From an uncultured delta proteobacterium (GTDB taxonomy: Bacteria; Desulfobacterota; WTBG01; CAIYCZ01; CAIRTM01): a DNA stretch of 64,000 nucleotides. Positions 193-39,390 of this stretch are shown here, piece after piece; within the stretch, counting starts at the first letter, position 1; each line of letters opens with the position of its first letter. The notes below the pieces were generated by a model. It searched no databases. It saw only the letters and a program-made list of their open reading frames with translations, and was not told the DNA's origin. The stretch spans positions 384,001 through 448,000 of the forward strand of contig CAWDSQ010000007.1 in NCBI GenBank assembly GCA_963804955.1, in the 5' to 3' direction. The translations under genes were made by a program, and so were the position numbers.

Positions 193-426
193 ATGAAAGT
201 AGATCGTGAAATATGCGTAGGCTGCGGAGCCTGTGTAAATCTCTGTCCGCGGTTGGCCATTCGTCTTATCGATGACAAGTCTTTTATTGATCAGGTTTCC
301 TGTATCGAGTGTGGCACCTGCAGGGCTGGCTGCGGTGTGGATGCAATTTTCTGTGACTGCCGCTTTCCTGAAATACTCTTGCTTAATCTCACAAGCGATA
401 CCTACGAACAAGGGGAGCGCTCATGA
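193..426 (+). CDS. 2x[4Fe-4S] ferredoxin
   Basis: CVGCGACVNLCP and CIECGTCRAGC motifs; overlaps next gene (ATGA). Confidence 0.9.
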   Translation: MKVDREICVGCGACVNLCPRLAIRLIDDKSFIDQVSCIECGTCRAGCGVDAIFCDCRFPEILLLNLTSDTYEQGERS

Positions 427-1736
427 AAAAAATCTATGATTTTATTGTAGTTGGAGCAGGACCCGCAGGGTTGATGATCGCAAAAGAGCTGTCAGCAGCA
501 AGGCAGGATGTGCTTCTGATTGATATAAAGAAGGAAATATCGAAAGTTCACCGTTCCTGCTGTACCATGCTGATCAATGAACCCAATACACACGGGGAAA
601 CCGTTCGCTTTGTTGATAATGATCTTTATTTTGAAAAAACCGGCATTACGGTCAAATACGGGCATCCCTATGTTAAGCTGGTTAAAAGCTCCAGAATGTC
701 CACCGGCGGAAATAAGCTGACCATGGTCAACCGTGAAAACGGTGTGGCGCTGCCATATACCAAAGAGATCATCCTGCGTAATCTCCTGGAAGAATCCCTG
801 GCGAACGGTGTTGATATCTTAACCGAAACAGCCGGTATTCGGGCGGAAAATATTGACGGTAAAGTAAAAGTTACTATTCGCGACAACCATACACGAACAC
901 TCAAAGAAGTCTGGTGCAGGGTTTGTTTCGCGGCGGACGGTTGCAACTCACAGATTGTTACGGGCCTGGAGCTGTTCAGGACCCGGAAATATTTTGGTTC
1001 ATATCGGGTGGCCTCCTATTTCCTGGATGAAGTGGATTATCCGAACTGGGACTCATGGATTACCTGTGTGGGAAAAGGGCATACCCCCTGGGGCAAAGGT
1101 CAGATCTATATGGTCCCCAAATATCTAGCGGATGCAAAAAAAGGAGATAAACCTATTCTTGATGTGTTCTGCGGGACCCCCTGCGGTTTACCGGCCAAAA
1201 TGGGCCTGGACTGGTTCTTAACAGAAGGCCCGTTTAAAGAATGGTTCCATAATGCTAAAATTGTACATAAGGCAGCATGTGTGCTAAACTTTTACACCTG
1301 TATTATGAATCCGGTAGAGGGAAATATTGTGGTGGTGGGTGATGCCGCCGCCTTTATTGAAACCTACTGTCAGTCGGCATTAATGTACGGATATCTGGCA
1401 GCACAGGCCGCGCTGAAAGTCCTGAGTACCGGAAAAGGGTATGATGATTATACCAATTTTTGGCGGGAAAGCTTTGAGTACTGCCATCCCGGTGAAATTG
1501 AAAAGGCACTGCAGGCTTTTGGTCTCGGGCGACTTGAGGATGAACAGCTGAATTATATTTTCAGCCTGACCAATAATGAGGAATATGCCGGATACGTCAG
1601 CGAAAACACGGCCGGCTATGTGATGCAAAAGGCCATCATGGGTCATATTGCCCAGATCAAAAAAGAACGTCCCGATATTGCGGCTGTAATTGAACAACAC
1701 TGGAAAGCGTCGGCGGAAGACATCGTGGATCAATAA
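423..1736 (+). CDS. FAD-dependent oxidoreductase, geranylgeranyl reductase/FixC-like
   Basis: VVGAGPAG, ADG and VGDAA motifs; 437 aa. Confidence 0.85.
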   Translation: MKKIYDFIVVGAGPAGLMIAKELSAARQDVLLIDIKKEISKVHRSCCTMLINEPNTHGETVRFVDNDLYFEKTGITVKYGHPYVKLVKSSRMSTGGNKLTMVNRENGVALPYTKEIILRNLLEESLANGVDILTETAGIRAENIDGKVKVTIRDNHTRTLKEVWCRVCFAADGCNSQIVTGLELFRTRKYFGSYRVASYFLDEVDYPNWDSWITCVGKGHTPWGKGQIYMVPKYLADAKKGDKPILDVFCGTPCGLPAKMGLDWFLTEGPFKEWFHNAKIVHKAACVLNFYTCIMNPVEGNIVVVGDAAAFIETYCQSALMYGYLAAQAALKVLSTGKGYDDYTNFWRESFEYCHPGEIEKALQAFGLGRLEDEQLNYIFSLTNNEEYAGYVSENTAGYVMQKAIMGHIAQIKKERPDIAAVIEQHWKASAEDIVDQ

Positions 1737-1750
1737 CAAAAGAGGTTTGT

Positions 1751-2296
1751 GTGCCGAACATACTGCTGCCAACAATGAGCCAGGCGAGGAAGGAGTCTTT
1801 TGCACATCGCGGCATACATCTCGTTGAATCCATTACCGCCCCGGAGTTCGAGCAGGTTATTACGGACTACCTCGCCGGCCATAATGTTCTGCACCTTGCA
1901 ACCTGCAAGAGCAATGAGGTGCGCAGCACAACCTTAGAATATTTCAACAACAAGCTGACGGTGTATATCTTGTCTGAAGGCGGCGGAAAACTGGCAAACC
2001 TGAAAGCAAATGCAAATGTCAGCTATACCATTGCAGACCCCTATAGCCCGGAAAAGGATTTCTTCGGTGCTTCCGGCCTCCAGGTTTGGGGCAGGGGCAC
2101 TGTATTTAGAAAAAATGATGCTCCGGAAATGTTTGCCTCAATTAACCGCTATGCCCGAACTGCAGACAGCCTTGAGCAGCAGGACCTGAAGGCAAAGGCT
2201 GCCGCTGTAAATTTTTATGTTATCACCATTGAGCCTGACAAAATTATTTATCTTAACTACCGGCAGGGATATCGCAAAGCTACGTGGGAGCGTTAG
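1751..2296 (+). CDS. Pyridoxamine 5'-phosphate oxidase-like split-barrel protein
   Basis: LHLAT...RST...KLANLKANANVS...GLQVWGRG pattern. Confidence 0.8.
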   Translation: MPNILLPTMSQARKESFAHRGIHLVESITAPEFEQVITDYLAGHNVLHLATCKSNEVRSTTLEYFNNKLTVYILSEGGGKLANLKANANVSYTIADPYSPEKDFFGASGLQVWGRGTVFRKNDAPEMFASINRYARTADSLEQQDLKAKAAAVNFYVITIEPDKIIYLNYRQGYRKATWER

Positions 2297-2433
2297 CGCA
2301 GGATGCCTCAATGCAGGCGGCTTATGGAGCTGACCCGTTTGCCTGCTCTGTTATGGGGGACCGGGGAGCTTTCAACATACATAGTGGGATGAACTAACAA
2401 CCACTGAAACTGTTTTTTACAAAGGCGGTGCTT

Positions 2434-3117
2434 ATGCAAAACGTGACGAGAAGACAATTCACGCAAAAAACAGTGCTTTTTTCATTTGCTGCCGCACTGG
2501 TTCCGGCTATTGCGTCCGCTGCCGGCCCTCCGGCAGGCATGACCGCAGAAAAGGCTTCCGCGATGCTGGACAAGCTCAAAAACAATGCTTTCGCGAACAG
2601 GAATGATCTCTCCGACGCCATCAAATCCCTGTACATGACCTATGATACAACCAGCCCCTATCCCCATAAGTTCAATGAAGTCCTGACCAAGCAGCAACTG
2701 AGAAGCCTGCAATTCTACATTAATAACGGTGCTGAAAAGGAGTATGTGAACCACTGTATCACAACAGCCGAGCCCCTTCTCAAAAAAATAAAATCCATTG
2801 TTGAGAAGGAAGGCGGCGAGCAGGGCCTGCACAACATGTTTGAAGGCACTTCAACGTCATATCAGCTCTTTGAACATATTAATGTAATGCCCGGGAGCAG
2901 ATCATTCCCCTGCCCGTATAAAGAACTGCTCGCAAACTGCAAAAAATACCTGCTCACGTTTTCAATGGAGTGGAGTGATGTCTGTACAAAATTATGCACT
3001 CCCCTATGGACAGGAATAGGTGAAACGCTAGGCATCAGCCTTTCCGTTCAGCCAGGGGATACGTGTACCGTTGCCCTCAAGACAAACGGCAAGAAGCCTG
3101 AAGGAGGTGCTGCATGA
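2434..3117 (+). CDS. Tat-signal Cys-containing protein (ATC hydrolase/V4R-like), paralog A
   Basis: TRRQF twin-arginine motif, hydrophobic stretch and ASA; FPCPYK...VCTKLC...GDTC. Confidence 0.65.
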   Translation: MQNVTRRQFTQKTVLFSFAAALVPAIASAAGPPAGMTAEKASAMLDKLKNNAFANRNDLSDAIKSLYMTYDTTSPYPHKFNEVLTKQQLRSLQFYINNGAEKEYVNHCITTAEPLLKKIKSIVEKEGGEQGLHNMFEGTSTSYQLFEHINVMPGSRSFPCPYKELLANCKKYLLTFSMEWSDVCTKLCTPLWTGIGETLGISLSVQPGDTCTVALKTNGKKPEGGAA

Positions 3118-3776
3118 ATACGCATAAAAATCAAAACCCGGGCTCGGAACAATTGCCAATGGTTGAAGATACACAGCGCAGAAACTTCTTTAAAAAATTC
3201 TCTCTTGCCGGCCTGCTTTCAGCAGGATTGCTCCTGGGCCTGCCCCGCAGAGCAGCGGCCTGGCTGGATGGTAAATTCCAAGAGCGGCAGGATCTTGCCG
3301 ATGCCTTTAAAGTTCTACAAAAAACCTACAGCGATGTCAGCCCCTATCCCCATAAGTTCAATGATGCTTTGGTAAAGCTCCAGCTTCGGGATCTCGATTT
3401 TGCTGTTAAAAAAGGCTTTGACAAAGAATTTGCCGATCATTATGTCCTCACCCTTGGTGTGCCGATTGAGCGGCATATCAAACCCGCTATTGGAATGCTT
3501 GGCAAAGATTGTTTCCTGTGGGGGATTTTTGAACGCACAAGCTGTTCCTATCAGCTGTATGAACACATTAATATAGCTACAAAAAACGAGCGTTCATTCC
3601 CCTGCCCGTACAAGTCTATTCTCGGGCATATTCAGGGCACTGATGTGAACTATGTGATCAAGTGGAAAGATGTATGCGAAAAATGGTGTTCAAGGACCTG
3701 GAACGGTTTTGCTGATACTGCTGGTGTAAAAATTAAAATTATGCCGGGGGAAACCTGTAAGGTCAAAGTAATCTAG
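3114..3776 (+). CDS. Tat-signal Cys-containing protein (ATC hydrolase/V4R-like), paralog B
   Basis: QRRNFF motif and AAA cleavage site; shares SPYPHKFN, SYQLxEHIN and RSFPCPYK with the upstream gene. Confidence 0.65.
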   Translation: MNTHKNQNPGSEQLPMVEDTQRRNFFKKFSLAGLLSAGLLLGLPRRAAAWLDGKFQERQDLADAFKVLQKTYSDVSPYPHKFNDALVKLQLRDLDFAVKKGFDKEFADHYVLTLGVPIERHIKPAIGMLGKDCFLWGIFERTSCSYQLYEHINIATKNERSFPCPYKSILGHIQGTDVNYVIKWKDVCEKWCSRTWNGFADTAGVKIKIMPGETCKVKVI

Positions 3777-3832: not shown

Positions 3833-4570
3833 ATGAGCAGGAAATCCCTGCCGGAAGCGTGTTTTGAAATACTGACGCAGAAAATAGAGCTGAGCAGAAT
3901 CCCGGGATTTGAAGATCTGGAGCAGGTTAAGCTGCTAAACGGCGATGCCGGGGGCGGATTAAAAATATATACAGGTGATAAAATCAACCGCGTTGTTATG
4001 GTTGATTTCAAGCTCGGGGAGGGCGTGCCGATTCCGCACCATGAAAACCGGCCGTCAGTAGGCGCGGAAATATTTCAAATTGCCCCGGATTTCAATTACA
4101 AGCTGCCGATATTTGGAATTAATTCCGTTATCATGAAGGATGGCACCTATTATTTTGATACTGACTTTTCATTCGGCTTTGATCTCGTCAGGGACTATGA
4201 TTTTGTGGCAAAATACATTGAGCCCATCCAGGATATGTATACTAAATTTTCACTGCATCCCGATTTTAAGATCATCCCCCTTTCGGAAATGACGACATGG
4301 GTGAGAACGTATATTTCGCCTTTGTTCATTACCGCAATTACCACGGTTGATAAAGTCCAGACGGTATTTGATCTTGCATCGGAATATATAAACCTTTGGG
4401 CGAAAATGCACACAGAAGCAGCGCCTGTCACCGGAGATTTCAAAGAGCTTCAGCAGTCACGAATACAGGCGCAGTATGCCGGCATGAAAAATACCGACAG
4501 GATGGGCAAAGTGCTGCTGAATGCTTTCGGCAAAGAAACGTTCAGCAAATTTTTCAAAGCCATGTCATAA
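3833..4570 (+). CDS. Ferredoxin-dependent bilin reductase (FDBR)/RCCR-like protein
   Basis: PDFNYKLPIFGIN, WVRTYISP, EYINLW and C-terminal DRMGKVLLNAFGKE match the FDBR pattern; 245 aa; AGGAG RBS. Confidence 0.7.
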   Translation: MSRKSLPEACFEILTQKIELSRIPGFEDLEQVKLLNGDAGGGLKIYTGDKINRVVMVDFKLGEGVPIPHHENRPSVGAEIFQIAPDFNYKLPIFGINSVIMKDGTYYFDTDFSFGFDLVRDYDFVAKYIEPIQDMYTKFSLHPDFKIIPLSEMTTWVRTYISPLFITAITTVDKVQTVFDLASEYINLWAKMHTEAAPVTGDFKELQQSRIQAQYAGMKNTDRMGKVLLNAFGKETFSKFFKAMS

Positions 4571-6711: not shown

Positions 6712-8155
6712 TCAACGCTTTTTTGAGAGAACAGAATCAATGGACAGATAGAATGCCTCTGTCACATTTTTCTGATATTTGCCGACGGGAACGCCATTAT
6801 AAATGACCCGCGTTTTGCCCTGCTGAAATTCCCGCGTGTACGGAATTGACCAGTCGGGGTAATCGATCTGTTCATAGACGTCATAGCCTTCAAATCCATG
6901 ATAATTTTTCAGTGCGTGATGAAACAGTGTATCTGAATTTTCTGCAAAAAACTCTATGGGCAAACCGATGACATAGTCATAGCCTTCCTTGATAGCCTGC
7001 AAATATGCCCGGTTTGTCGAAAGATATTTTTCTTTCGGGTCCCACACCGGGTCGGCGAATTCATCCTGACAGATAACAACATTGGTCCTGCCGAAGGCAT
7101 ATGATTTCAAGAGCCCTTTCACATCCTCAACAAGCTTATCGCGGTATTGCGGAGCCAGCTCAAGCCAGGCTTCCCAGCTGAAGTGATCCCACGGCATGCC
7201 ATGCACGGTCACCGCAACGGTAACACTGGAACTCTTCGGGAGGGTATCAAGCCTGTCTTTAAGCATATCTACAAAGGCCTGGCGCATCGGCTGAAATTGG
7301 CCCATGGGGGGGGCCATGATGACTTTGACTTTTTTACCCGGATGCTCGGCTTTCCACTCATTGATATATTCCATGCTGTGCCGGAAGCTTGAGTTAAACT
7401 CTTCAAAATGCGAATAGATCGGCATCGGGGCGGCAAGTACTATTGTTTCGCATCCTTCATCGAGCAATTCGAAAAGCTTTTTTTTCATATTATAGTAGTC
7501 AAGGCTGCTTTCCGCACGAAAGGCGATAGTGCTGTATTTCGAGCGGATTTTATCCAGCGCGCCGTTTATTACTTCAAATGATCCCTGCCAGTGAGGCAGT
7601 TTCTGCTGTTTTATGCCGCGGTTGTAGTACCAGATATTGGCTTTATTCATTGTTTTACCACTCAGGGAGGGCAAGCCGGCCTTATGGCCGGTAAAAAGAA
7701 AATAGCCATGATCGAGATAAATTCTCTTGGACGGCGGCTGCCAGACAACCTCCCCTTTTTTGTATTTTTCAATAAAAGGCTCACCATCTATGTCGTTGTC
7801 ATTGCCATATTGATCAACCAGGCGCGTAGGCTTAAATTCTTCGTGCTCATGATATTTAACGGCATCCAGCAGGGCTACTCCTTTATCGATCTTGGAAAAA
7901 AGCCGAAATGGCCACGGAATAATAGCATTAAAAATTTTCAAAGTTATATTATAGAAAAACGGATATTCCATTTTCTCAGGCATTATCAGGCCGGTTACAA
8001 ATATTCCGACCTTCCCTTCCGGCACACGAATCCTGTATTTTATAATATTCTTCATAATAGTCCGGCTTCTGACGCCGGTTTTTGTATTTTGCAAGGACAG
8101 TATAAAAAACCGATACGGCAATAATGAATACTACAAAGCCCAGTAGAATTTTCAT
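6712..8155 (-). CDS. Membrane-anchored ferrochelatase-like (class II chelatase fold) protein; frameshift near 8030
   Basis: N-terminus MKILLGFVVFIIAVSVFY (ATG 8155) lies in another frame; KVGIFVTG, PMPIYSHF, TVHGMP and PIEFFAENSDTL resemble HemH motifs. Confidence 0.7.
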
Positions 8156-8179: not shown

Positions 8180-8936
8180 TCAAAGACTCCCAAGAAAATC
8201 TGTAGCAGCTTTCAGTATCGCCTGCTGCTGCTGAGCGTACGGAATTGACGCCGGTTTGTCTCCGCGATATAAGCTGTCTTTATTTGACAATGCACAAAAC
8301 TGCGAGTGATTGCCTCCCGGAATCTCAACAAACTGCGTTTCTGCCGGGAGGTGCTGTTTTGATGCTTCAATATCACTTAATTTTGTCAGCCCGTCACTGG
8401 TCCCGAAAATTGATAAAGCCTTCAATGTCATATGTTCAACCCTGAATCTGTGTGACGGATATGATGCCAGCAAAATCAAGCCGGAGATTTTCTCAGCGCT
8501 TGATCTGACATACCGGCATGCCATAACACCGCCCAGAGAGTGCCCGCCAAGAGCCCATTTCTCAATTTCAGGATATCTGCTCATAAGTATGCCTGCTCTC
8601 GTATAGCCAAGCACGGCAAGGTCAAGGGGCATGGATACTATAATGGCCAGATAGCCTTCCGCGGCAATGGCCTGCATTAATGGGGCATATGCCCTTGGAT
8701 CTACCAGCCCTCCGGGATACAGAATAAATCCCTTTTTTTTGATCCGTGCTTCGATCGGGAAGAAACACATAATGGGTCCCGGCCCACCCCAAATCGATTG
8801 TCTGTGCGCTTTTGCTCGTGCCTATAATATCCAGCGCCTCTTGAGCCGGTTTATAAGAAAATGGCTTTGCCCATAGCATATAGCCGGTCAGCAGCAGTAA
8901 AAAAACCCCTGACGCAAGCAGCATTCTGTATTTCAT
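8180..8936 (-). CDS. Alpha/beta hydrolase (esterase) with N-terminal anchor; frameshift in a homopolymer at ~8735
   Basis: ILYPGG, GGHSLGG nucleophile motif, GTSDG and GGNHSQF; two ORFs join at a 9-base run. Confidence 0.85.
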
Positions 8937-16176: not shown

Positions 16177-16193
16177 GGCGGAAATTCTCCCTT

Positions 16194-27334: not shown

Positions 27335-27610
27335 TTACAGATACTTCTCTCTGTTGACAGGGGCACATGTACGTGAGGCATGCAAAACATTACCGCACAG
27401 AGCTCGCCAGCCCTCGGTCAATCGAGGGAAAACGCCCCCAAAACACTCGCTTGTTTTTAAGGGCTCCACGACGTCAAGCACTTTGTCGATTTTATCTTCC
27501 GGTGTTATCGCCCTGAGCGCAGCAATTATATTTTCTTCCCGTATCGAACGGCCATCGCCAGCAGTATATTCTACGGCACGGGCTCCGCCGCTGCTGGCGG
27601 AGCCGCTCAA
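27335..27610 (-). CDS. Short hypothetical protein or gene fragment
   Basis: Protein-like 91 aa ORF downstream of a TTGACA-17-TATAGT promoter (27632-27660). Confidence 0.3.
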   Translation of the reverse strand: MSGSASSGGARAVEYTAGDGRSIREENIIAALRAITPEDKIDKVLDVVEPLKTSECFGGVFPRLTEGWRALCGNVLHASRTCAPVNREKYL

Positions 27611-28891: not shown

Positions 28892-31125
28892 TTACTGCTG
28901 AAGTTGATTTTTAGCCGCCCGGAGAACATATTTCGCCAGCAGCGGGCCAACCCCGGGATCATTATTGGGCGGTTTCCACAAGGCCCATGTCCCGGTATAT
29001 TGATTTTGTATCGGCTGATTTACATCAGGGGCTGACACGCTTTGATCATACCCCAGATGCCCCGTATTCGCAGACGTCATAGGCAAGAGAAGGATCCATG
29101 GCGCTGATCTTGGAAGTAAGTGCTGTTTGGCGCGGCGGCGGATACGGGCGCCCGTCGCTGCAGCCGCCCATTTCAAAACAGCACGGCTGTCCGCCGCAAG
29201 TCAGCATTGGCCCAGTTGCCCCAGTAATCAGCAAAGGGATGGCCTATGCCCGGATACGTTCCGGTATCTCCCGCAGCCCAATACAGCCAGTTTTTGAAGC
29301 CGATTTCTTTCGCAATCTGATTGGGTACTTCGACAAGATTCAGAACGGAATCGGTTGCAATCTGCGGAAATGCAACAACGACATGCTTTACGCCCCTGTT
29401 TTTCAAATATTCAAGGGCATCCCAGTACAAGTACCCCCATTCTCCCGAGGGTAATTGCTTAGTGCTCTGGTAGAGCCACGCATCGCCAAGATTCTCTCCG
29501 CGCATCTGCCGGGTTCTCTCAATAAGGCCATTTGCAGGGTTTAATGCTGGACGCCCCATCCAGGCGCCGATAATATTTCCCGGATTTATGCCCGGATGCT
29601 TCGCGAGCAGCTGAGATTTAATGTTCTGATTAACGATGAGCGTGTCATTGGTCTTTGGATCAAAAAATTCTTTATAATCATTAATTGGATGATTTAAAAG
29701 GATGACCCCCACATCAGCATCCGGCACATTCTGGTTTAAAACAGCTTCAATGCCCGTTACATGCATTGCGGCGAGCGCCGGATCAATGGCAACGGGATTC
29801 CCGGTGCCGTTGTCATAGGCGACGTTTGCATCTGTTGTCGGAAGGCCCAGCGTAGCGGTCCATCCGGCGGGTGCGGTGGGGAATGACCTTTCCATCAGAT
29901 TCGTGTAGTCATTTACCCAGATAAGAGGAATAGAGGTTGCATGTTCAGCATTCCACTTAGTAAGGGCCCTTTTTGACATCTGGATCACATCGTAGGTCTT
30001 TGAAAAGCGAACCCCGCCGACAACCAGATCAATGGCAATTATTTTCGTCACCCCTTGTTTCAGAAGCCGTTCCACCGGGCCATCAACATTATATCTTTGG
30101 GGATTACAGTCGGGCCAGGGCCCGCCGGGTTCCAGCTCGCCGCAATAGGTGCAGTTGTCTCCTGTGCCGGAGGGCGGCAGGTACATATACCGGGGATAGG
30201 GGTAGTGCTCGGTATCATCACCGATCATCCAGGCGGCCCAGTCATACACAAATGAAAGACCATATTCCTGGTTGAGCACTTGTTGCATGGCGTTCATTTG
30301 CTGCCTGGTGATTTCCATAAACGGGTCGGTGCCGCCAATCCGCTGATACTCGAATGCATATTTCAACATATACTGTACTGAGGTTTCCACCGTCAGAACA
30401 GCTCCCCACAATGAAGCATTATGTAAAAATAATTTATTAACCGGGTGATTCGGATCATAGGAAAATTGCTGCATGGAGGCATCCCAGACACCTTGCTGTG
30501 ACATCTCATCAAACCCGCCATGGACAACAAATAAAACACCCACCTTTTCATTACAAGCCCAATCACAGGCAGGCTGTCCGCTGCCGCCACAACCGGGCGC
30601 CGGGTCACACACATCGCCTATGCCATCACCATCGGCATCAAGCTGAGCGTAATTACAGGTGGCCGGACAATTGTCAACGTTATCAGCATAATAATCATTG
30701 TCTGTATCAACCTGCCCTTCACAGCTTGTCTGGCCGCACCCGCCGCCGCAACCGGGCGTGCTGTCGCACGCATCACCTATGCCGTCACTATCGGCATCAC
30801 GCTGAAGGGGATTGGCAATGGCCGGACAGTTATCATAATAATCAGAAATTCCGTCGGTATCTATATCAAAAGACTCGCAGACAGGCTGGCCGCAGCCGCT
30901 GACGAGGCCACAGCCGGGGGTTAGATCGCACACATCACCTGTGCCGTCCAAATCAGCATCCAGCTGAAGGGGATTGGCAATGGCCGGGCAGTTATCGATG
31001 GCATCATCAATGCCGTCACCATCACTATCGGCAGCCCATGAAACCCCCTGCCCGATAAAAATAAATAAAAATGAAGCTGCTACGGCCAGGGACTTGAGTG
31101 TTTTTCTTAGCCCGGTTTCTCTCAT
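28892..31125 (-). CDS. Secreted chelatase-fold protein with N-terminal thrombospondin type-3 repeats; frameshifts at ~29200 and ~29075
   Basis: Signal peptide, three DNCP..N..Q.D.D.DG.GD.CD units, then [16 protein letters not shown] and [12 protein letters not shown]-terminus colinear with its paralog. Confidence 0.65.
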
Positions 31126-31190: not shown

Positions 31191-32959
31191 TTACTGCTGC
31201 AGTTTATTCTGCGCAGCCAGCAGCACATATTTAGCCAGCAGCTTGCCAACCCGGCGATTATCATTGGGCGGCGCCCACATGGCCCAGGTCCCGGTGTACT
31301 GATTTTGCACGGGCTGATTCACATCGGGAGCGGAAACGCTTTGATCATAGCCCAGGTGCCCGTACTCGCACACGTCATAGGCAAGAGAAGGATCCATGTC
31401 ACCGCGCTTGGAGCCAAGTGGCGTTTGGCGAACCGGCGGATACGGGCGTCCGTCGCTGCACCCGCCCATTTCAAAGCAGCATGCCTGTCCGCCGCAATCC
31501 GTATCGACCCAGTTGCCCCAGTACTCAGCAAAGGGATGGCCTATGCCCGGATACGCTTTGTCATCACCGGCAGCCCAATACAGCCAGTTTTTGGCGCCGA
31601 TTTCTTTGGCAATCTGATTGTGTACTTCGACAAGGTTTAAAACGGAATCGGTTATAATCTGCGGGAAGGCAACAACGATATGCTTTACCCCCCTGTTTTT
31701 CAAATATTCAAGGGCATCCCAGTATACGTACCCCCATTCTCCCGAGGGCTTTTGCTTATTGCTCTGATAGAGCCATGCATAGCCGAGGTCCTCTCCGCGC
31801 ATTGCCCGCGTTCTCTCCACCAGGCCGTTTTCGGAATTTGTTTCTTTGACCCCCATGAAAGCGCCGATAATATTTCCCGGATCCAGGTCAGGGTGCTGCT
31901 GAATCAATCGGGATTTAATGTTCTGGTTGAGAATAATTGTATCGTCAATCTTGGGATCAAAAAACTCATTATAATCATTGATCGCATGATTAAGAAGCAG
32001 CACGCCTGTCTCAGAATCCAAAACGGCGCCGGACATAACCGCTTCAATACCCTCAGCATGCACTGCAGCAAGCTCTGCATCAGAGGCTACGGGGTTGGTG
32101 CTGTTGTCGATCGGGACCTGGGCATCCTGCGCGGGCGCCCCCAGCGTTGCCGTCCATCCCGCCGGTTCGGTGGGATATGACCTTTCCATAAGATTTGTAT
32201 AATCATTGACCCATACAAGCGGGATAGCAGTGTTATGCTCCTCATTCCACTGATTGATCACCTGTTTGGCCAGCTGGATAACATCATAGGTTTTGGAAAA
32301 TCGAACTCCGCCAACGGTCAAATCAATGGCAATTATTTTAGACACCTTTTTTTTCAGCAGCCGTTCCACCGGGCCGTCAACATTATACCGCTCAGGATCG
32401 CAGTTTTCCCAGGGCCCGTCGGTTTCATCTTCGCCACAATAGGTGCAGGCGTCTCCTGTGCCGGAGGGCGGATTGTACATGTGCCGGGGGTAGGGGTAGT
32501 GCTGCACATCATCACCAACCATCCAGCCGGCCCAGTCAAACACAAAGGTAAAGCCATTCCTCCATCCCTGCCGCCAGCAGCTCCTTTTGCATATCCTTCA
32601 TTTGCCGCATGCTGATTTCCGGTAAAGGGATCAACCCCCCCGATCCTCGGATATTCAAATTCATATTTCAAAAGATATTTTTTTGCGATTTCCTGCTGCA
32701 AAACAATTCCCCACATTGAAGCACTATAGATTATGCCATTAGCCGGGTGATTCGGGTTGTAGGAAAACTGCTGCATGGCGCTGTCCCACACATATTGCGG
32801 CTGAACAGTATCCATCCCGCCATGGATAACAAACAGCACCCCCACTTTTTCTGTATTCAGGCAGGAACTCCCCACAGATAACAGCAGAAAGGAAAAAAAC
32901 AGCAGGAAAAAAACCCTGAATTTAGCAGGTAAGCCCTTATGGATTTTTTTATTGTTCAT
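31191..32959 (-). CDS. Lipoprotein with chelatase fold (paralog of the 28892-31125 gene); frameshifts at ~32550-32620
   Basis: Lipobox-like VGSSC, KVGVLFVIHGG, LLNHA and VAFPQIITDSV; near-identical to its neighbour. Confidence 0.65.
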
Positions 32960-33276
32960 CCGTTTAAATACTCGCGGTAACCCTGACAATGCATTTCATG
33001 CCGCCTCCATTCTTTAATTTCTGGTTGCCTGAATTAAGCATTAGAATTGAGATATTTCCATACTCACGAGAGGGCGCTCCAAAAAACTTAAAAAAATGAA
33101 TTATTAGCTTATGATTACCATTTTAACATGCAAAGTCAAGGGTGCGCTTCTTCAAGCAGATTGAGCCTGCAAAAGCTTCCATTGTATTGAACGGAGGCCA
33201 ACGGACTGATTTTTTTTGACCCGATTGCCTGTCGAGCCGCAGGCCGGCAAACATGCGTTTTCAGCAAACACGCAGG

Positions 33277-34669: not shown

Positions 34670-35161
34670 TGCCTCTCCTTCCATAGCTTGTTTTTAATAT
34701 CGCTCGCATGTCTGATTGTTTTCACCTTTTAATCCTGTCGACGGATGAAGTCAACAAAAAACATTCAGTATGAATTATTCTATTGACACACTAATCTGCC
34801 GTGTTAGATTAAATTGCTCTGCCGGAATACGTTAAGATTTTTCCATGCTGATTACTTTGCCGGTCTCCAGCCGGGCTTGCTTTTAAATGTTTAATGGTTT
34901 AATTTTTTAAAAATTGAAATAAAAATAAACAATTTAATTGCCGCCTAAAACCATTCAAAAATCATATGGCCGTGCATTGCCGTGCCGCACAGCACCTTGA
35001 TAAAAGCCGGTCTCATGCGGAATTTAGAACATTATTCTTTTTTACTTTAGACTTGCTTTTTTCTGTCATATCAACCGAAGGGAGCGATTTTAAAATTTCC
35101 AGCCGCCCTCGAAATGGAACGATGCGGCTACACCATAAAGAAAATGCTCCACAATAATCAT

Positions 35162-37117
35162 ATGGATCATCATAAACAAAAACTCTGCGGCTGGGTTGGC
35201 AAGATACTGAAGGTTGATCTGACGCATGAGCAGATCGAAATACTTGACACCATGGCCTATGCCGAAAAATTTCTGGGCGGCCTGGGGATCGGGCAGAAGC
35301 TGTACTGGGACCACGCTGCCTGGGGGGCTGATGCCTTTGACGAGCAGCAGCCCCTTATCTTCATGACCGGCCCGCTTGCGGCAACGCCTGCGCCCAGCGC
35401 GCCGCGGCTGTCCATCTGCGGCAAGTCGCCCTGCATCTATCCCGAAACATTCGTGAGCGCAAGCCTGGGCGGTTTTTTTGCCCCTGAGCTGAAGAAAGCA
35501 GGTTTTGACGGCATCATCGTTGTGGGCCGTGCAGACGGGGCCGTGCATATTCATATCGAGGACGGCGCTGTCGAGATACGGGAGGCGTCGCAGCTCTGGG
35601 GCCTGGGGAATCTCACAACCCATGAGCTTTTGAAAAATCAGTTCGGCAAAAATGTGCGCATTCTTTCCATCGGCCCGGGCGGGGAAAACCGCACACGCTA
35701 TGGCATTATCTATACGGATGTTGCGGGCGCGGCCTCCATGGGGTTTGGCTCGGTCATGGGCGCGAAAAACCTCAAGGCCATCACGGTGAAAGGCACGGGC
35801 TCCGTGGCTGTTGCCGATGCCGGGGCGGTCAAGCAGATACGCAAGCGTTTTTCCGAGATGACCGGCACGGGATTTTACAACCTGTTCGGCAACCCCATTA
35901 TACTGCCGGGCATGACGGTGGTGAAGAAGGCGCACTGCCACGGCTGCCCGCAGGGCTGCTGGCGCACCGTGCAGCAGAGCGCCTCGGGAGCGCAGGACAT
36001 TCGCAAGTGCCAGACCAATCTTTTTTATGCCCTGTGGGACAGAAAGCTGCACGGCCAGATCACCGAGGCGAGCTTTCAAGCCGCCACGCTTGCAAACGAT
36101 TACGGCCTGTGCGTGCTTGACTTGGGGCGCCTCATGTCCTGGCTCGATAAATGCATCACCGCGGGCGTGCTGACAGAAAAAAATACCGAGCTGCCCATGG
36201 CGCAGATGGGCAGCTCGGAGTTTTTAGAGGACCTGCTGAAAAAAATCTGCTCCCGCCGGGGATTCGGCAGCGTGCTTGCCGAGGGCGCTATCCGGGCGTC
36301 GGAAAATGTGGGCGGGGAAGCCCGCGAGATCACGCTCAATATGTTTACGCAAACGGGCCGTGCTATTGCCTATGGGCCCAAGGTGTTTGTGCTCTCAGCG
36401 CTCATCTACGCCCTTGAACCGCGGCCCTTCATTACCGAATTGCATGAGGTGTGCGAGCCCCTCACCAAGTGGGGCCGGTGGCACACGAAAACCGATGAGA
36501 AGTCCTATATGTCAACCGATGTTATCCGCCGGATCGGCAAAGCGTTCTGGGGAGGGGAAAAGGCGGCTGATTTTTCAACCTATGAAGGCAAAGCAAAGGC
36601 CTCGGCCCTCATTCAGAACCGGCAGTATATAAAAGAGTCTCTTGTCCTGTGCGATTTTGCCTGGCCGGTGTATGATGATGCTTCCACTGAAGATCATGTG
36701 GGAGATCCCGGGCTTGAAGGCAAGCTTCTGTCAGCGGTGACCGGCTGGGAAATTGATGAGGCGGGGCTGAACCGGTTTGCCGAGCGCATCATTGCCCTGA
36801 ACCGGGCAATACTTCTGCGTGAGGGCCGCCGGGGCAGGCAGGATGATATTTTGCCTGAATTCTTTTTTATCGAGAGAGATGAATTCATCGCCGATGTGTT
36901 CGGTATGCACAACCCGCAGCTGCTGCTGCCTGGCGCGGGCGACGAGGTCATTTCTCGGCGCGGCAAGGCCGTTGACCGGCAGGGGTTTGAAAAGCTTCTG
37001 GACGACTATTACGGCCTGCGGGGCTGGGATGAAAAGACCGGCTATATAAAAAAAGAAACGCTTATAGACCTTGACCTTGCCGACTGCGTGGAGCCCCTGG
37101 GGGAGAAGGCGGTATAG
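35162..37117 (+). CDS. Aldehyde:ferredoxin oxidoreductase (W/Mo AOR family)
   Basis: GWVGKILKVDLT, KSP, ELKKAGFDG, IGPGGEN, VMGAKNLKAI, CHGCPQGC and YYGLRGWD. Confidence 0.92.
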   Translation: MDHHKQKLCGWVGKILKVDLTHEQIEILDTMAYAEKFLGGLGIGQKLYWDHAAWGADAFDEQQPLIFMTGPLAATPAPSAPRLSICGKSPCIYPETFVSASLGGFFAPELKKAGFDGIIVVGRADGAVHIHIEDGAVEIREASQLWGLGNLTTHELLKNQFGKNVRILSIGPGGENRTRYGIIYTDVAGAASMGFGSVMGAKNLKAITVKGTGSVAVADAGAVKQIRKRFSEMTGTGFYNLFGNPIILPGMTVVKKAHCHGCPQGCWRTVQQSASGAQDIRKCQTNLFYALWDRKLHGQITEASFQAATLANDYGLCVLDLGRLMSWLDKCITAGVLTEKNTELPMAQMGSSEFLEDLLKKICSRRGFGSVLAEGAIRASENVGGEAREITLNMFTQTGRAIAYGPKVFVLSALIYALEPRPFITELHEVCEPLTKWGRWHTKTDEKSYMSTDVIRRIGKAFWGGEKAADFSTYEGKAKASALIQNRQYIKESLVLCDFAWPVYDDASTEDHVGDPGLEGKLLSAVTGWEIDEAGLNRFAERIIALNRAILLREGRRGRQDDILPEFFFIERDEFIADVFGMHNPQLLLPGAGDEVISRRGKAVDRQGFEKLLDDYYGLRGWDEKTGYIKKETLIDLDLADCVEPLGEKAV

Positions 37118-37470: not shown

Positions 37471-37494
37471 GGCTCAACCCTGCTGTTTAAAAAC

Positions 37495-37965
37495 TCAGTC
37501 GCCTTTGACAATAACTTTTCCCTTAAATTCCTGAATCCTCTGCCTCTCGCTCAACATCTGTGTATATGCTCTGGGCACTTTGCGTGCCACAAAATTGAAT
37601 TCGCCGGGCTCTATAAAGCACATGCTGGCGACGGCCCCGGTCGGTATGCGGTCGGATATAAAGAAGCCCTCTTCAGTGAGCACAAAATGCACCGGATTTT
37701 TGCACGCCAGGCTCACCTGCTTACCCTCAAATTGCAGCTCAACAGGTTCCTTGGATTCGTTGACCCAGACAACAGTGGAGCCGGGCTTAACCGTTAAGCT
37801 TTCAGGCATAACCGCCCCGGAATAATGGATGCGAATTATCTGGTGAATGTTAATATTTTTTTCCGGCACAATTTTCTCTTGAATTTTCTCCTTCTGGGCA
37901 GCTGCGATAGTAGCAGATGCCAAAACTGCAAGGCAGGTTAAAAGCACTAGATATTTTTTTTTCAT
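37495..37965 (-). CDS. Secreted cupredoxin-like protein
   Basis: Signal peptide; PESLTVKPGSTVVWVN and FIEPGEF. Confidence 0.65.
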   Translation of the reverse strand: MKKKYLVLLTCLAVLASATIAAAQKEKIQEKIVPEKNINIHQIIRIHYSGAVMPESLTVKPGSTVVWVNESKEPVELQFEGKQVSLACKNPVHFVLTEEGFFISDRIPTGAVASMCFIEPGEFNFVARKVPRAYTQMLSERQRIQEFKGKVIVKGD

Positions 37966-38040
37966 GGCTCCCTCCTTCATAAAGTTAATCTGTTTTGAAC
38001 TCTCTGTACTGCAGGCAATTCCCACGAAGCCCGACAGCTG

Positions 38041-39390
38041 TCATCGGCTGGACATCGTAGTCGGGAATCCTGAGCGGATGCAGCCGTTAAAAATTGTTTC
38101 AAGGGGCTCGGTGCGCATTTTTTTAAGTTTCTTAAAAACATCCGGGCGCTCGCTGGAAACCGCCGGCATGATTTCCGCCATGGCTGCCGCTACAATTTTC
38201 GGAGTTTCATAAGGATCAAGAATGCTTCGCAGCGTTTTGGTTATTTTGCTGAGCAGGTAGTCGATGTCGTCGATGCTCAGGCAGTAGGGCATAACCGCAT
38301 TGCGGATCATATCACGGTGATCGAGCTTGTTGATGATCTCATCACGCCACCAGTCAAGATAGACGAATACGCCTTCGCGGGATATGTTGCCTTCGGTCAG
38401 CGCATATTTGACGGCGTTGGCAGCCTTCCAGCCACTGATAATTGCGCCGGTCATTTCGGCTTCCTGGCACCACACCGCATCCGATACCAGCAGTACCTGA
38501 TCCTTATACGGATCAACGATGTGGGAATACATGTTTCCCATAATCGACAAGGGCCGGACCTTTTCGGCATTTTTGAACCAGGGGGCAAAGTGACTCTTTT
38601 TGATAAAACGCTCAAAGGCTCCCTGGACATCCGAGCCCGGATGCGTGCAGCTGATGAACGGGAAATAGGTCTCTCCGTCGGCCCGGGGGGTCATCCAGAT
38701 GCGCATCGGGGTTTTTTCTTCGAGGAAAATTTGAAAAAGAGCATATTTTTCAGAGGGTTCAACACCCACCATTTCATAACCGTAACTGGTGCTCGTACCG
38801 TAATATTTGCGCTCCCGGTTTTTTTCGAGGGTTTTGGCAAGCCGGGAAGCCCGCCCGTCAGCACCGATAACGAAGGTGCCGATAAATTTAGTCCCTTCCC
38901 GTGTATACACGGTAACGGAACCGTTTTTGGTTTCCGAACCAATAACATTATGGGAAGGAAACACGTCGACATGATACTGCTCGCATTCCCTAAGCAGACT
39001 TTTCAGCAAAGCGCTTTTGTCATAGGTGGCGCTGATCCGGCCCCGGTCGCCCATGCTTTCGTTTTTTTGATAATCCCCAAGCTGAATTTTGTTTCCTTTG
39101 TAGGAATAAATCGACCAGGAATAAAAATTCTGATGCCTGCCGTCATAGGGAATCGAAAACCCGTACCCCGGAAAGCAGAGCCGGTTGTCCCGAGTATTGA
39201 TCGAAACGCGTTCGCCCAGATAGCGCCCGGTCAGCGTGACGACCATCATGCTGCAGGCCCGGTTGATATCCGTAATGTTTTTCTTTCTTTCGATAAGTGC
39301 TGTTTTCAGGCCCATTTCACCTGCAGTTTTTGCTGCCATCAGGCCTGCCGGGCCGGCGCCGACAATAATGACGTCGTATCCTTTTGCCAT
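38041..39390 (-). CDS. FAD-dependent oxidoreductase, geranylgeranyl reductase-like (paralog of 423-1736)
   Basis: IVGAGPAG, GADG and VSDA. Confidence 0.85.
   Translation of the reverse strand: MAKGYDVIIVGAGPAGLMAAKTAGEMGLKTALIERKKNITDINRACSMMVVTLTGRYLGERVSINTRDNRLCFPGYGFSIPYDGRHQNFYSWSIYSYKGNKIQLGDYQKNESMGDRGRISATYDKSALLKSLLRECEQYHVDVFPSHNVIGSETKNGSVTVYTREGTKFIGTFVIGADGRASRLAKTLEKNRERKYYGTSTSYGYEMVGVEPSEKYALFQIFLEEKTPMRIWMTPRADGETYFPFISCTHPGSDVQGAFERFIKKSHFAPWFKNAEKVRPLSIMGNMYSHIVDPYKDQVLLVSDAVWCQEAEMTGAIISGWKAANAVKYALTEGNISREGVFVYLDWWRDEIINKLDHRDMIRNAVMPYCLSIDDIDYLLSKITKTLRSILDPYETPKIVAAAMAEIMPAVSSERPDVFKKLKKMRTEPLETIFNGCIRSGFPTTMSSR

Follow-up and report, generated by a model that had tools for sequence, protein, structure and literature searches.

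A gene island in an uncultured delta proteobacterium (Desulfobacterota; assembly GCA_963804955.1) may be one copy of a modular system, specific to its lineage, that imports hydrophobic tetrapyrrole pigments from outside and processes them reductively, a reading to which we assign a probability of roughly 0.45. The island lies in a 64,000-nucleotide stretch of contig CAWDSQ010000007.1 (positions 384,001 to 448,000, hereafter the window). Candidate substrates are pigments of the chlorophyll or pheophytin type, porphyrins, and already opened bilins or phyllobilins, and a plant-like chlorophyll pathway would be one sub-case of this reading. Two structurally unrelated tetrapyrrole-associated families, FDBR-like reductases and class II chelatase-like proteins, are both multicopy, co-distributed and physically linked. 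Characterized members of both folds act on tetrapyrroles.

A sequence-only reading of the window had proposed an anaerobic route of pigment catabolism. The pattern that it described is real, and is stronger and wider than was stated there. The folds, the co-occurrence of the genes and the lack of any oxygenase match agree with that proposal; its step-by-step analogy with plants is not supported.

FDBR-like reductases

The genes that carry the argument are listed here in window coordinates (L numbers denote loci; GA is the Pfam gathering threshold).

3833..4570 (+): FDBR1, 245 aa; Fe_bilin_red (PF05996) 42.3 bits, GA 31
16923..17695 (-): FDBR2, spread over three frames; Fe_bilin_red 30.5 bits on the C-terminal piece; frames -2/-1/-3 against L013:1376-2143
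16180..16907, about (-): FDBR3, divergent FDBR-like paralogue, frameshifted; N-terminal open reading frame (ORF) 16590-16907; intact homologue L013:2103-2801
6712..8155 (-): chel1, protein of class II chelatase fold; hydrophobic anchor at the N-terminus, which lies in another frame
28892..31125 (-): chel2, with Sec signal peptide, thrombospondin-type-3 repeats and chelatase-like domain; C-terminus frameshifted
31191..32989 (-): chel3, lipoprotein-like chel2 paralogue with one frameshift; 67% to L006:6684-8504 over 335 aa

The intact homologue of FDBR2 (L013:1376-2143) scores 46.5 bits against Fe_bilin_red (GA 31). FDBR3 is tied to the family only by a tblastn match to FDBR2 (E 8.6e-8) and an hhalign match to the FDBR1 profile (probability 43%, E 2.4e-4). 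The RCC_reductase model (PF06405) stays under its GA of 24.9, with 16.2 bits (E 0.006) for the FDBR2 fragment and 13.5 bits for the intact homologue, and the PebA, PebB and PcyA equivalogs of NCBIfam are far below their cut-offs (20-32 bits against 206-327). The sequence-only reading had listed three FDBR/RCCR-like genes; because RCC_reductase gives just 13-16 bits, the FDBR half of that label fits and the RCCR half does not.

The fold of FDBR1 is predicted from Pfam and profile matches only. Searched against the PDB, its family profile had a sole match, PEBB (6qwq, E 0.001). The family comprises 119 proteins at E<=0.001 among 266 candidates, all unnamed or 'hypothetical', from metagenome-assembled genomes (MAGs) of Deltaproteobacteria/Thermodesulfobacteriota and one Ca. 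Schekmanbacteria (P0116, 52% identity). In the excerpted text of Rockwell et al. 2023 (PMC10151467), Schekmanbacteria sequences fall with the RCCR outgroup and are left uncharacterized; earlier sampling of the FDBR1 family could show in the supplementary FDBR trees of that paper.

In GtPEBB, Asp-99 on the central beta-sheet and Asp-219 in a loop connecting the distal helices form an essential pair, and Asp-99 is described as 'critical in all FDBRs' (PMC6755814). In our alignment of paralogues the Asp-99 column holds Asp or Glu in 7 of 12, FDBR2 included, and a 'DPG' motif marks the Asp-219 site in 9 of 12, being absent from FDBR3 and one other. Near that site the Asp of FDBR1 is displaced by one position (D222), and another Asp, D111, is almost invariant. 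By these residues, most of the paralogues look catalytically conventional.

Chelatase-like proteins

Sequence searches of the PDB with chel1, chel3, the PNPOx-like protein and the first GGR-like protein gave nothing useful, so the assignment of chel1 required fold prediction and a family profile. Its AlphaFold2 model (24-row alignment; pLDDT 92.4, pTM 0.91) matched human ferrochelatase (1hrk) in Foldseek at E 1.7e-10, with TM-scores normalised to the target (TMt) of 0.64-0.72. There were 142 matches at E<=1e-3, and the other top ones were HemH/CpfC coproporphyrin ferrochelatases, SirB (4e-6) and the heme-binding FetB of P. gingivalis. According to this model chel1 has the two-domain class II chelatase fold. 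The chel1 profile also matched LmCpfC (E 1.9e-7), with an almost invariant H307-G308 aligned to the His of SAHSLP, and by this alignment the ferrochelatase active-site His is kept in the family; an H182A variant of LmCpfC is a PDB entry. It is a small family, with 118 cluster representatives at E<=0.001 out of 1.84 billion; the protein is about 480 aa long, and its true N-terminus, in the other frame, is a hydrophobic anchor.

The assignment of chel2 and chel3 is weaker. chel2 has a Sec signal peptide, three thrombospondin-type-3 repeats (TSP_3, 72 bits) and a VLFVVHGG stretch, and scores 21 bits against Pfam Ferrochelatase, under GA. Its L006 homologue aligned to the chel1 profile in hhalign with a probability of 95%, but that profile includes a chel3 row. 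chel3 has a lipoprotein-like signal and matches the chelatase-like A3 model in a six-frame search (C7:415194-416546). Three exported chelatase-fold genes, as proposed from the sequence, are borne out for chel1 by model and profile and for chel2 and chel3 on this weaker evidence. Overall, profile and structure searches upheld the FDBR-like and class II chelatase folds, and moderately the V4R/Bet3-like fold discussed below.

When chel2 and chel3 are compared with L006:6684-8504, the segment matching residues 110-242 lies N-terminal of that matching 28-103, opposite to the order in L006. Either a rearrangement or an internal repeat may account for this.

Exported chelatase folds would also suit the salvage of a metal or cofactor from environmental metallotetrapyrroles (heme, corrinoids, Ni or Mg macrocycles). 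Here the chelatase-like proteins would strip or hand over the metal or cofactor, and the reductases would just dispose of or remodel the remainder. The match to heme-binding FetB fits this explanation, as do the flavodoxin-like genes that accompany the system and a corrinoid adenosyltransferase gene about 4 kb from one FDBR paralogue (L040). Published work covers both the anaerobic de-chelation of heme by a chelatase homologue, HmuS, and an anaerobilin reductase of the flavodoxin family (PMC12583661, PMC10404700). However, ten chelatase-like and eleven FDBR-like matches, several RND cassettes and a dedicated NADH/ferredoxin module seem excessive for metal supply, a Pfam scan of the island revealed no TonB-type receptor or known heme-uptake gene, and heme and corrinoids are not very hydrophobic. 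We consider salvage decidedly unlikely.

Linkage and distribution of the core genes

FDBR-like and chelatase-like genes accompany one another well beyond the island, together with V4R-like genes and a four-component cassette resembling AmeABCD (the DUF1302, DUF1329, BNR and RND genes described below). Of 41 related genomes, 31 have Fe_bilin_red matches, 6-22 each. Within families f1, f2, f4 and f5 a single genome lacks such matches, and f3 (0/8) and f6 (0/1) have none; in an even sample of the phylum they were found in 5 of 151 genomes, all f1 or f2, and in 0 of 146 from 71 other families. The chelatase-like family is found in 32 of the 41 relatives (2-13 matches per genome), missing only from f3 and f6, and the V4R-like family in 27, every one of them FDBR-positive. 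These relatives share kinship, and the pattern is a co-distribution rather than a statistical test. Adjacent FDBR-like and chelatase-like genes occur on at least eight contigs from seven genomes (G011, G018 twice, G020, G017, the present genome G000, G014 and G026), and adjacent V4R-chelatase pairs are likewise present in many related genomes. At several loci, in several genera, FDBR-like genes adjoin Ame-cassette, chelatase-like and V4R-like genes.

G000 has 11 Fe_bilin_red matches, eight of them over the cut-off, and ten matches to the chelatase-like model. Combinations of the island genes recur at its other loci: RND-DUF1302-DUF1329-BNR-chel2/3-type-FDBR-PNPOx-MFS (L037), DUF1329-BNR-RND-PNPOx-FDBR followed by AOR-chelatase-like-flavodoxin-like (L038), a GGR-like gene, an SDR (short-chain dehydrogenase), an ATC_hydrolase-like gene and a Fer4::FDBR fusion (L039), GGR-like-flavodoxin_5-FDBR (L036), and FDBR-V4R-like followed by a GAF histidine kinase (L040). 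In a permutation test we counted the families within 10 kb of the eight other FDBR-like sites of this genome, excluding the island itself. DUF1329 was near four of the eight (random mean 0.32, P ~1e-4) and BNR near three (P 0.0013); V4R-like (P 0.006), DUF1302 (P 0.007), chelatase-like (P 0.011) and RND (P 0.011) genes were near two each. ETF genes were near none, FAD oxidase and MFS genes near one each, and SDR genes were likewise not enriched.

Two candidates for the core were rejected on these counts. The ETF block has no ETF gene near the eight sites and a FAD oxidase near one, and AOR genes are near two, yet this genome has 17 AOR loci outside the island (P = 0.14). The ETF-linked dehydrogenases and AOR that the sequence-only reading included in the route are present in the island, and their linkage to FDBR-like genes elsewhere is not significant.

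Outside this genome, 25 loci with FDBR1 relatives were recovered and compared with the island proteins by tblastn; many of their contigs span just 2.6-6 kb, and three of the loci (L001-L003) are closely related to the window. Genes of the Ame cassette are present at eight of the 25 (L001, L004, L006, L009, L011, L013, L016, L024), GGR-like genes at eight, the V4R-like pair at four, AOR at three, and chelatase-like genes and FAD oxidases at two each. L006 (FDBR1 64% identity) holds both blocks of the island: a ferredoxin, GGR-like gene, chelatase-like gene, two V4R-like genes and FDBR1, plus chel1 and the whole cassette, with the chel2/3-type gene relocated beside the GGR-like gene. In L013 and L016 (57%) the order is GGR2, FDBR2, FDBR3, SCP2-like, fdx2, cassette, FDBR1, followed in L016 by an SDR and a flavodoxin-like gene. 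A Pfam scan of 119 neighbouring ORFs revealed second FDBR-like, CPOX-like, AOR and GGR-like genes and 2-oxoacid:ferredoxin oxidoreductases (L017, L025). Island genes recur together in other genomes and elsewhere in this one, which answers in the affirmative the question of synteny raised with the first proposal.

At L021 (Dehalococcoidia), FDBR-like genes stand beside a TRAP transporter. The TRAP family imports carboxylates and tetrapyrroles bear carboxylate groups, and we count this neighbour in favour of a tetrapyrrole substrate. In another MAG, a pyruvate-formate-lyase-like glycyl radical enzyme is encoded directly upstream of an FDBR1 orthologue (L015:407-2893). Two genes past the FDBR-like gene of L037 (L037:9800-10660, G000:C14), a 286-aa protein has a match of 24.7 bits (GA 32.5) to the protochlorophyllide reductase B C-terminal domain.

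The island might instead be no single system, its unrelated redox operons and transporter being merely juxtaposed. This would suit the right-hand block of ETF, FAD oxidase, SDR, MFS and AOR genes, which is not significantly linked to FDBR-like genes elsewhere, and the unrelated neighbours at 7 of 25 FDBR1 loci of other genomes. It fits poorly with a core order conserved at 57-64% identity (L006, L013, L016), with the repetition of the core set in the same genome, with linkage of the Ame cassette, chelatase-like and V4R-like genes to FDBR sites above random (P 1e-4 to 0.011), and with the co-distribution of the three families over 41 relatives. We find mere juxtaposition highly implausible.

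V4R/Bet3-like Tat pair

The two tandem genes ahead of FDBR1 encode exported paralogues (proteins A and B) that have 201 homologues, all unnamed, belong to no Pfam family and keep their tandem arrangement in relatives. The AlphaFold2 model of protein B has a confident core at residues 81-220 (pLDDT ~85-93). Its best Foldseek match is Bet3/TRAPP (E 2.8e-3), and VIA also ranks Bet3/TRAPP first (Z 7.1-6.4), followed by the V4R domains of PoxR (5fru, Z 5.8) and DmpR (6iy8, Z 5.4) and by H-NOX (Z 5.5); the two fold searches are independent. In the ESM Atlas the nearest named cluster is ATC_hydrolase (0.91), the family of the product of window 26800-27390. Pfam V4R (PF02830) gave no match to the pair at E<=1. 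A V4R/Bet3-like fold is predicted for the pair with moderate support, and the V4R-like proteins of the sequence-only reading are retained on the strength of these middling fold matches, the Pfam family itself not being matched.

One further V4R-like gene, this one without a signal sequence (C30:325231-325710), is part of a row on one strand at L040:4970-8736 (G000:C30) that comprises an FDBR-like gene, the V4R-like gene, a 98-aa ORF and a GAF-HisKA-HATPase sensor kinase. In a non-phototroph, such a row might serve signalling in response to pigments.

Gene content and assembly of the island

ORF listing and Pfam/NCBIfam scans outline two blocks of opposite orientation between window 193 and 17.7 kb. 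The plus-strand block (193-4570) reads fdx1, GGR-like 1, PNPOx-like, the two Tat-signal paralogues and FDBR1. In order of transcription, the minus strand reads FDBR2, FDBR3, SCP2-like, fdx2, BNR, HAE3 RND, DUF1302, DUF1329, alpha/beta hydrolase, chel1, a small lipoprotein-like ORF and an exported flavodoxin-like protein. Right of 17.7 kb follow the EtfAB/FAD_binding_4/CCG block, ATC_hydrolase-like, SDR, chel2, chel3, MFS, AOR, a gene without family match and GGR-like 2; housekeeping genes (uvrB, ptsI, dnaG, rpoD, mutS, topoisomerase) take over past 39.4 kb. To the left the island extends about 7.7 kb beyond the window (L057), with two PadR genes, a third GGR-like gene, a ferredoxin, an unknown gene and NuoE-, NuoF- and NuoG-N-terminal-like genes on the same strand as fdx1. 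The remaining features of the window are as follows.

3..152 (+): 3' end of the gene for an Fe-S subunit resembling the NuoG N-terminus; it closes a NuoE/F/G-like module that begins upstream of the window; L057:13325-14152 has Fer2_4 and Fer4 domains, with NuoE-like and NuoF-like genes before it, and the L006 homologue matches window 3-146
193..426 (+): ferredoxin fdx1, 2x[4Fe-4S] type, by Cys motifs and ferredoxin-type NCBIfam matches; ahead of GGR1 also in L002 and L006
423..1736 (+): GGR-like FAD flavoprotein 1 (GGR1), FAD_binding_3, Rossmann-type; TIGR02032 66.9 bits, cut-off 158.8
1751..2296 (+): PNPOx-like split-barrel protein, PF01243 34.8 bits, GA 28.1; such genes adjoin FDBR-like genes in L005, L037 and L038
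2428..3117 (+): Tat-signal V4R/Bet3-like protein A; twin-arginine motif, 41% identity to protein B
3114..3776 (+): Tat-signal V4R/Bet3-like protein B; RRNFFKK motif, invariant C164, C192 and C215
5170..5850 (-): Flavodoxin_5/4-like protein with N-terminal signal peptide (hydrophobic N-terminus), PF12724 28.8 bits, GA 27; orthologues in L001, L002 and L016 (49-88%), a distant one in L005 (27%)
8180..8770 (-): small alpha/beta hydrolase of serine esterase type; Abhydrolase_5 166.7 bits, GHSLG nucleophile elbow
9154..10437 (-): DUF1329/LolA-like periplasmic protein (AmeB-like), frameshifted; PF07044 on two ORF pieces; a single intact 422-aa gene in L006 and L013
10470..12017 (-): DUF1302 outer-membrane protein (AmeA-like), PF06980 62 bits; orthologues in L006, L013 and L016, 52-67%
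12049..14388 (-): HAE3-family RND inner-membrane transporter (AmeD-like), MMPL PF03176; TIGR00921 131.5 bits, below cut-off
14398..15477 (-): BNR/Ycf48-like beta-propeller lipoprotein (AmeC-like), PSII_BNR 147 bits, lipoprotein-type N-terminus
15547..15753 (-): ferredoxin fdx2, two CxxCxxC-type motifs; beside the cassette in L006, L013 and L016
15769..16176 (-): SCP2-like small protein, 135 aa; homologue L013:2811-3218 matches SCP2 at E 0.005, 17.6 bits, below GA; position kept in L006, L013 and L016
18903..25289 (-): EtfA, EtfB, FAD_binding_4 protein, CCG/Fer4 Fe-S protein (split) and GlcD-like FAD oxidase (split), by Pfam
26800..27390 (-): ATC_hydrolase-like Cys-rich cytoplasmic protein, PF14196 37.8 bits, of the same broad family as the Tat pair; such genes adjoin FDBR-like genes in L018 and L039
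27789..28592 (-): classical SDR, adh_short 135.7 bits; an orthologue (58%) directly follows FDBR1 in L016
33277..34684 (-): MFS transporter split by a frameshift, MFS_1 on both pieces
35114..37117 (+): AOR-family tungsten/molybdopterin oxidoreductase, AFOR_N 203 bits, AFOR_C 182 bits
37180..37797 (+): 205-aa protein without family match; a 40% homologue lies beside GGR2 and FDBR1 in L004
38041..39390 (-): GGR-like FAD flavoprotein 2 (GGR2), FAD_binding_3 49 bits; TIGR02032 71.8 bits, cut-off 158.8; orthologues (74-82%) adjoin FDBR genes in L004 and L013

Several simpler labels proposed from the sequence stand as they were: the esterase (Abhydrolase_5 167 bits, GHSLG elbow), the two ferredoxins (Cys motifs at 193-426(+) and 15547-15753(-)) and the split-barrel protein (34.8 bits, GA 28.1). 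The SDR has generic adh_short and FabG-like matches and reaches no equivalog cut-off, and its earlier label of NOL-like finds no support. Neither GGR-like protein passes TIGR02032 (66.9 and 71.8 bits against 158.8), and the BchP/ChlP models give 19-27 bits against 343. By these scores they are FAD Rossmann proteins, distant relatives of GGR; the two flavoprotein genes proposed are present, short of the GGR cut-off.

The two PadR regulators, divergent, lie at the left end of the extended island (L057:6822-8047; G000:C7, ~376.8-378.0 kb) and are candidate sensors of its substrate. Outside the island, a Phenol_MetA_deg-type outer-membrane channel gene adjoins a papain-family (C1) peptidase gene (window 55667-57754).

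Many genes are split across frames (DUF1329, FDBR2, FDBR3, chel1-3, the CCG protein, one FAD oxidase and the MFS transporter), and intact single-frame homologues of split genes are present in L006, L013 and L016. To window 9000-18000 we aligned contigs of four runs, three of them DNA runs out of three studies and the fourth an RNA run. In the frameshift zone of DUF1329, one-base indels relative to the window were found at 10120 in all four runs and at 10139 and 10177 in three of the four, with additional ones at 9804, 9810 and 9834 in one or two runs each; the contigs also disagree with the window at 15980, 16016, 16179, 16340 and 17590. Because contigs from other runs have indels exactly at the DUF1329 frameshifts, we read the frameshifts as assembly errors and not as decay, and many of them look like assembly indels rather than pseudogenes; for FDBR2 and FDBR3, in the thinly covered part at window 16.2-18 kb (16224-18000), this is presumed. 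The housekeeping topoisomerase (window 58392-60310) is likewise broken into at least two frames. Contigs of the metatranscriptome run (X17) overlap parts of the DUF1329, DUF1302, RND and BNR genes; we do not count them as expression, because contigs cannot show a transcript and the library may contain DNA.

Transport and electron supply

All four AmeABCD-type components (DUF1302, DUF1329, COG4447/BNR and HAE3 RND) stand together at window 9154-15477(-). The AmeABCD of Castellaniella defragrans belongs to a monoterpene island and is described as serving efflux and tolerance (PMC6394551, in excerpt), and in Pseudomonas the DUF1302 and DUF1329 genes are important for growth on fatty esters (preprint 10.1101/2020.07.04.188060). 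The sequence-only reading had called this a module for the uptake of hydrophobic substrates. The cassette is complete, and 'uptake' is an assumption, because the closest described relative of the transporter is an efflux system.

Direction matters for a further alternative, that the island makes an endogenous reduced pigment or lipid and exports it to the outer membrane, as HAE3 pumps do with hopanoids and sterols. The neighbours are reductases and not hydrolases or lyases, a squalene/phytoene synthase (L056) and a polyprenyl synthase (L034) lie near two paralogues, and characterized HAE3 transporters are described as carrying lipids outward (PMC6394551, in excerpt), with which weak NCBIfam matches of the transporter to HpnN and BstA agree. 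On the other side, 6-22 FDBR-like and 2-13 chelatase-like genes per genome resemble substrate diversity and not one product, as do the several separate cassettes and the PadR, TetR and MarR regulators, and the chelatase-like proteins are extracytoplasmic, where no tetrapyrrole precursor is made. We regard biosynthesis as very improbable.

Electrons could reach the reductases from ferredoxin. At L039:7599-8588 (G000:C20, ~76.6-77.6 kb), a single 329-aa ORF has a 2x[4Fe-4S] ferredoxin domain at its N-terminus, followed by an FDBR domain. In the manner of a 'Rosetta stone', it hints that ferredoxin may be the electron donor of these reductases. With the neighbouring ferredoxins and the NuoEFG-like module, a set of which also adjoins FDBR1 and a GGR-like gene in L012, the fusion makes ferredoxin dependence of the FDBR-like reductases plausible.

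Among the other redox genes, FAD oxidases adjoin FDBR1 in L005 and L022, AOR genes are near FDBR1 in L017, L018 and L025, and Flavodoxin_5 genes adjoin FDBR or chelatase-like genes at three other loci. The island AOR gene could not be assigned to the BamB-type ring reductases: it scores alike against FOR (1b25, 167 bits), BamB-type (4z3w, 163 bits) and AOR (1aor, 161 bits) structures. By tblastn with the island proteins, G000 has 18 loci each for AOR-family and GGR-like genes, 17 for FAD oxidases, 11 for PNPOx-like genes and 9 for DUF1329; for a genome of 4.3 Mb, such a stock of redox and hydrophobic-substrate functions is unusually large.

Absences and physiology of the host

In this 87%-complete genome we found no heme oxygenase, no photosynthetic reaction centre (Photo_RC), no dsrA and no heme-copper oxidase (COX1), which extends from the window to the genome the earlier observation that photosynthesis genes and heme oxygenase were not visible. 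Because these genes were not found, a non-phototrophic, non-sulfate-reducing anaerobe fits as the host. Pfam searches of the 47 window ORFs gave no globin match.

CPOX-like (HemF-like) genes exceed the Pfam cut-off at three loci of the genome (L053, L054/L055 and L056; G000:C5 and C15), and others occur at L017:2020-3789 and L023:8094-8864. Characterized CPOX relatives require O2. The L017 gene directly precedes an AOR gene and forms one ORF with an AOR N-terminal domain, which may be an assembly artefact.

Proposed function and the case against it

If the island does process imported tetrapyrroles, the AmeABCD-type assembly would move a greasy substrate or product across the envelope, and the exported chelatase-like proteins and the Tat-exported V4R-like pair could bind the macrocycle or strip its metal. 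The NuoEFG-like module and the small ferredoxins would feed low-potential electrons to three cofactor-free FDBR-like reductases and to the GGR-like flavoproteins. The task of these enzymes may be to saturate conjugated C=C bonds, in the macrocycle or bilin and perhaps in an isoprenoid tail as well, with the esterase and the SCP2-like carrier assisting. The outcome could be catabolism for carbon and nitrogen, a metal harvest or an electron sink.

The island combines lipid themes (Ame cassette, SCP2-like, GGR-like and esterase genes) with tetrapyrrole themes. Esterified chlorophyll-type pigments, which would combine both in one molecule, are the simplest single substrate class, because both themes are then explained. 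The CPOX-like and Flavodoxin_5 genes are further tetrapyrrole-associated folds in support of the tetrapyrrole reading, and FDBR variants are described as able to bind cyclic tetrapyrroles (PMC13446030, in excerpt), which we also count in its favour.

Several observations weigh against a tetrapyrrole substrate or pigment import. Support for this reading comes throughout from homology and gene neighbourhood. HAE3-type relatives also export hopanoids and sterols. FDBR1 is an atypical member of its family fold, because Asn (N97, in 26 of 26 family members) replaces the essential Asp-99, and FDBR3 lacks a Pfam match even for its intact homologue (L013:2103-2801). The V4R-like fold matches are middling, every Z being below the caution line of 8. 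At 7 of the 25 FDBR1 loci tblastn detected no other island gene, many of these contigs being short, and proximity to FDBR sites in this genome was not significant for PNPOx (P 0.06), GGR (0.08) or AOR (0.14). No enzyme for O2-free opening of the macrocycle was identified: for HutW-type radical SAM proteins (TIGR04107) the best match in the genome has 152.8 bits against a cut-off of 400, and none lies in the window. If already linear bilins or phyllobilins are the substrate, a ring-opening enzyme is unnecessary. Finally, the described relatives of the transporter export terpenes and are not described as importing pigments in the excerpted account (PMC6394551).

The main alternative is a hydrophobic substrate that is no tetrapyrrole, for example a carotenoid or another isoprenoid polyene, a terpenoid or a sterol-like lipid. 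The FDBR-fold and GGR-like enzymes would then saturate conjugated double bonds, and the chelatase-like and V4R-like proteins would be periplasmic ligand binders only. At L056, CPOX-like and FDBR-like genes lie beside a squalene/phytoene synthase gene, which points to isoprenoids, and at L023 a carotenoid-biosynthesis-type (Caroten_synth) membrane protein is encoded directly upstream of FDBR1 with a CPOX-like gene nearby; both loci count against tetrapyrroles. The GGR-like and SCP2-like genes suit isoprenoid lipids, 18 GGR-like and 18 AOR-family loci suit a generalist degrader of hydrophobic compounds, and the characterized AmeABCD is described in a monoterpene island (PMC6394551, in excerpt). 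Against this, the ferrochelatase catalytic His is kept in chel1, and chelatase-like and FDBR-like genes expand together, side by side. We know of no FDBR/RCCR/CPOX superfamily protein, and no class II chelatase, whose substrate is a non-tetrapyrrole. A non-tetrapyrrole substrate seems to us unlikely.

Comparison with known systems

Of the systems to which the tetrapyrrole reading can be compared, the pre-PcyA clusters of non-photosynthetic bacteria also place an FDBR gene by a small Fe-S protein and a V4R-type pair; as described in excerpts of Rockwell et al. 2023, such a cluster joins an FDBR to an Fe-S protein, a globin (BBAG) and two V4R proteins, in most cases with a heme oxygenase (PMC10151467). 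The island has neither heme oxygenase nor globin (BBAG), its V4R-like pair carries Tat signals and has no Pfam V4R match, and FDBR1 groups with sequences of the Ca. Schekmanbacteria type (P0116, 52%). It adds chelatase-like, RND, GGR-like and NuoEFG-like genes, and its hosts appear to be strict anaerobes. With AmeABCD of Castellaniella defragrans it shares the four components, a setting in a hydrophobic-substrate island and an anaerobic metabolism (PMC6394551, in excerpt). The gene order here is C-D-A-B, and in place of terpene enzymes the cassette is accompanied by FDBR-like, chelatase-like and ferredoxin genes.

Plant chlorophyll breakdown proceeds through NYC1/NOL, SGR, pheophytinase, PAO and RCCR. 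Like the island, it brings together an esterase, an SDR, possible dechelating proteins and reductases of the FDBR/RCCR superfamily. Unlike it, the island has no PAO-type oxygenase, its reductases score as FDBR and not RCCR, its SDR is generic and its chelatase-fold proteins are unrelated to SGR; at least three reductases with a dedicated ferredoxin supply suggest another chemistry. The sequence-only reading had seen counterparts of most plant steps. With the SDR generic, RCCR below threshold, no candidate for ring opening, and no significant linkage of the ETF, FAD-oxidase, SDR, MFS and AOR genes, that claim is no longer supported.

Anaerobic heme handling (ChuW/HutW-ChuY, the flavodoxin-type anaerobilin reductase HmuF and the de-chelatase HmuS; PMC10404700, PMC12583661 and, for ChuW/ChuY, PMC10151467) resembles the island in its O2-independent processing of tetrapyrroles, a chelatase homologue, flavodoxin-family proteins and reduction of a linear product. 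It differs in that FDBR-fold reductases are absent from those systems, and no HutW-type protein exceeds the cut-off here. HmuS is a CobN-like class I homologue, whereas the chelatase-like proteins of the island are class II (ferrochelatase/SirB-like) and exported. P. gingivalis FetB (PDB 9b86) and D. vulgaris CbiK(P) are likewise extracytoplasmic chelatase folds in anaerobes; the chel1 family is separate, its protein is larger (~480 aa), and it is FDBR-linked, with about ten copies per genome.

Literature searches turned up no paper that describes such a system. Those on anaerobic chlorophyll or tetrapyrrole degradation gave heme work only, those for a bilin reductase in Desulfobacterota found none (PF05996/Fe_bilin_red gave unrelated papers only), and those pairing phyllobilin with anaerobic yielded no relevant paper.

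Possible implications for anaerobic pigment turnover

A more far-reaching version of the tetrapyrrole reading would make these organisms a class-level lineage of Thermodesulfobacteriota, uncultured, strictly anaerobic and non-sulfate-reducing, that is specialized in the O2-independent transformation of chlorophyll-type and other tetrapyrroles in anoxic sediments; we hold this to be on the doubtful side. Exported chelatase-fold proteins would demetallate the pigment, and the trans-envelope Ame-type machine would carry it. Ferredoxin-driven batteries of FDBR-fold enzymes (6-22 per genome) would then reduce vinyl groups, pyrrole rings and meso bridges stepwise, a reductive dearomatization of the macrocycle with a logic like the benzoyl-CoA paradigm. 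Alternatively, they may be reductases for opened phyllobilins or phycobilins.

All known enzymes of the FDBR/RCCR/CPOX fold are described as ultimately O2-dependent in the excerpted text of Rockwell et al. 2023 (PMC10151467). Here the FDBR fold has 6-22 matches per genome in anaerobes without heme oxygenase, wired to ferredoxins, exported chelatase folds and a lipid-type transporter. Each year roughly a billion tonnes of chlorophyll are synthesized and broken down. To our knowledge, no enzymology has been described for what microbes do to chlorophylls, linear chlorophyll catabolites, phycobilins and other tetrapyrroles where sediments and soils lack oxygen.

If the substrate is a tetrapyrrole, the island would open anaerobic pigment turnover to testing and would yield new cofactor-free reductases along with possible de-chelatases, and the organisms that perform these steps in sediments would be identified. 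If it is not, two enzyme folds would here show non-tetrapyrrole chemistry for the first time. Should the sediment specialization hold as well, enzymes would be assigned to the early-diagenetic chlorin transformations known from sediment geochemistry, and the FDBR/RCCR/CPOX superfamily would not be bound to O2-dependent pathways.

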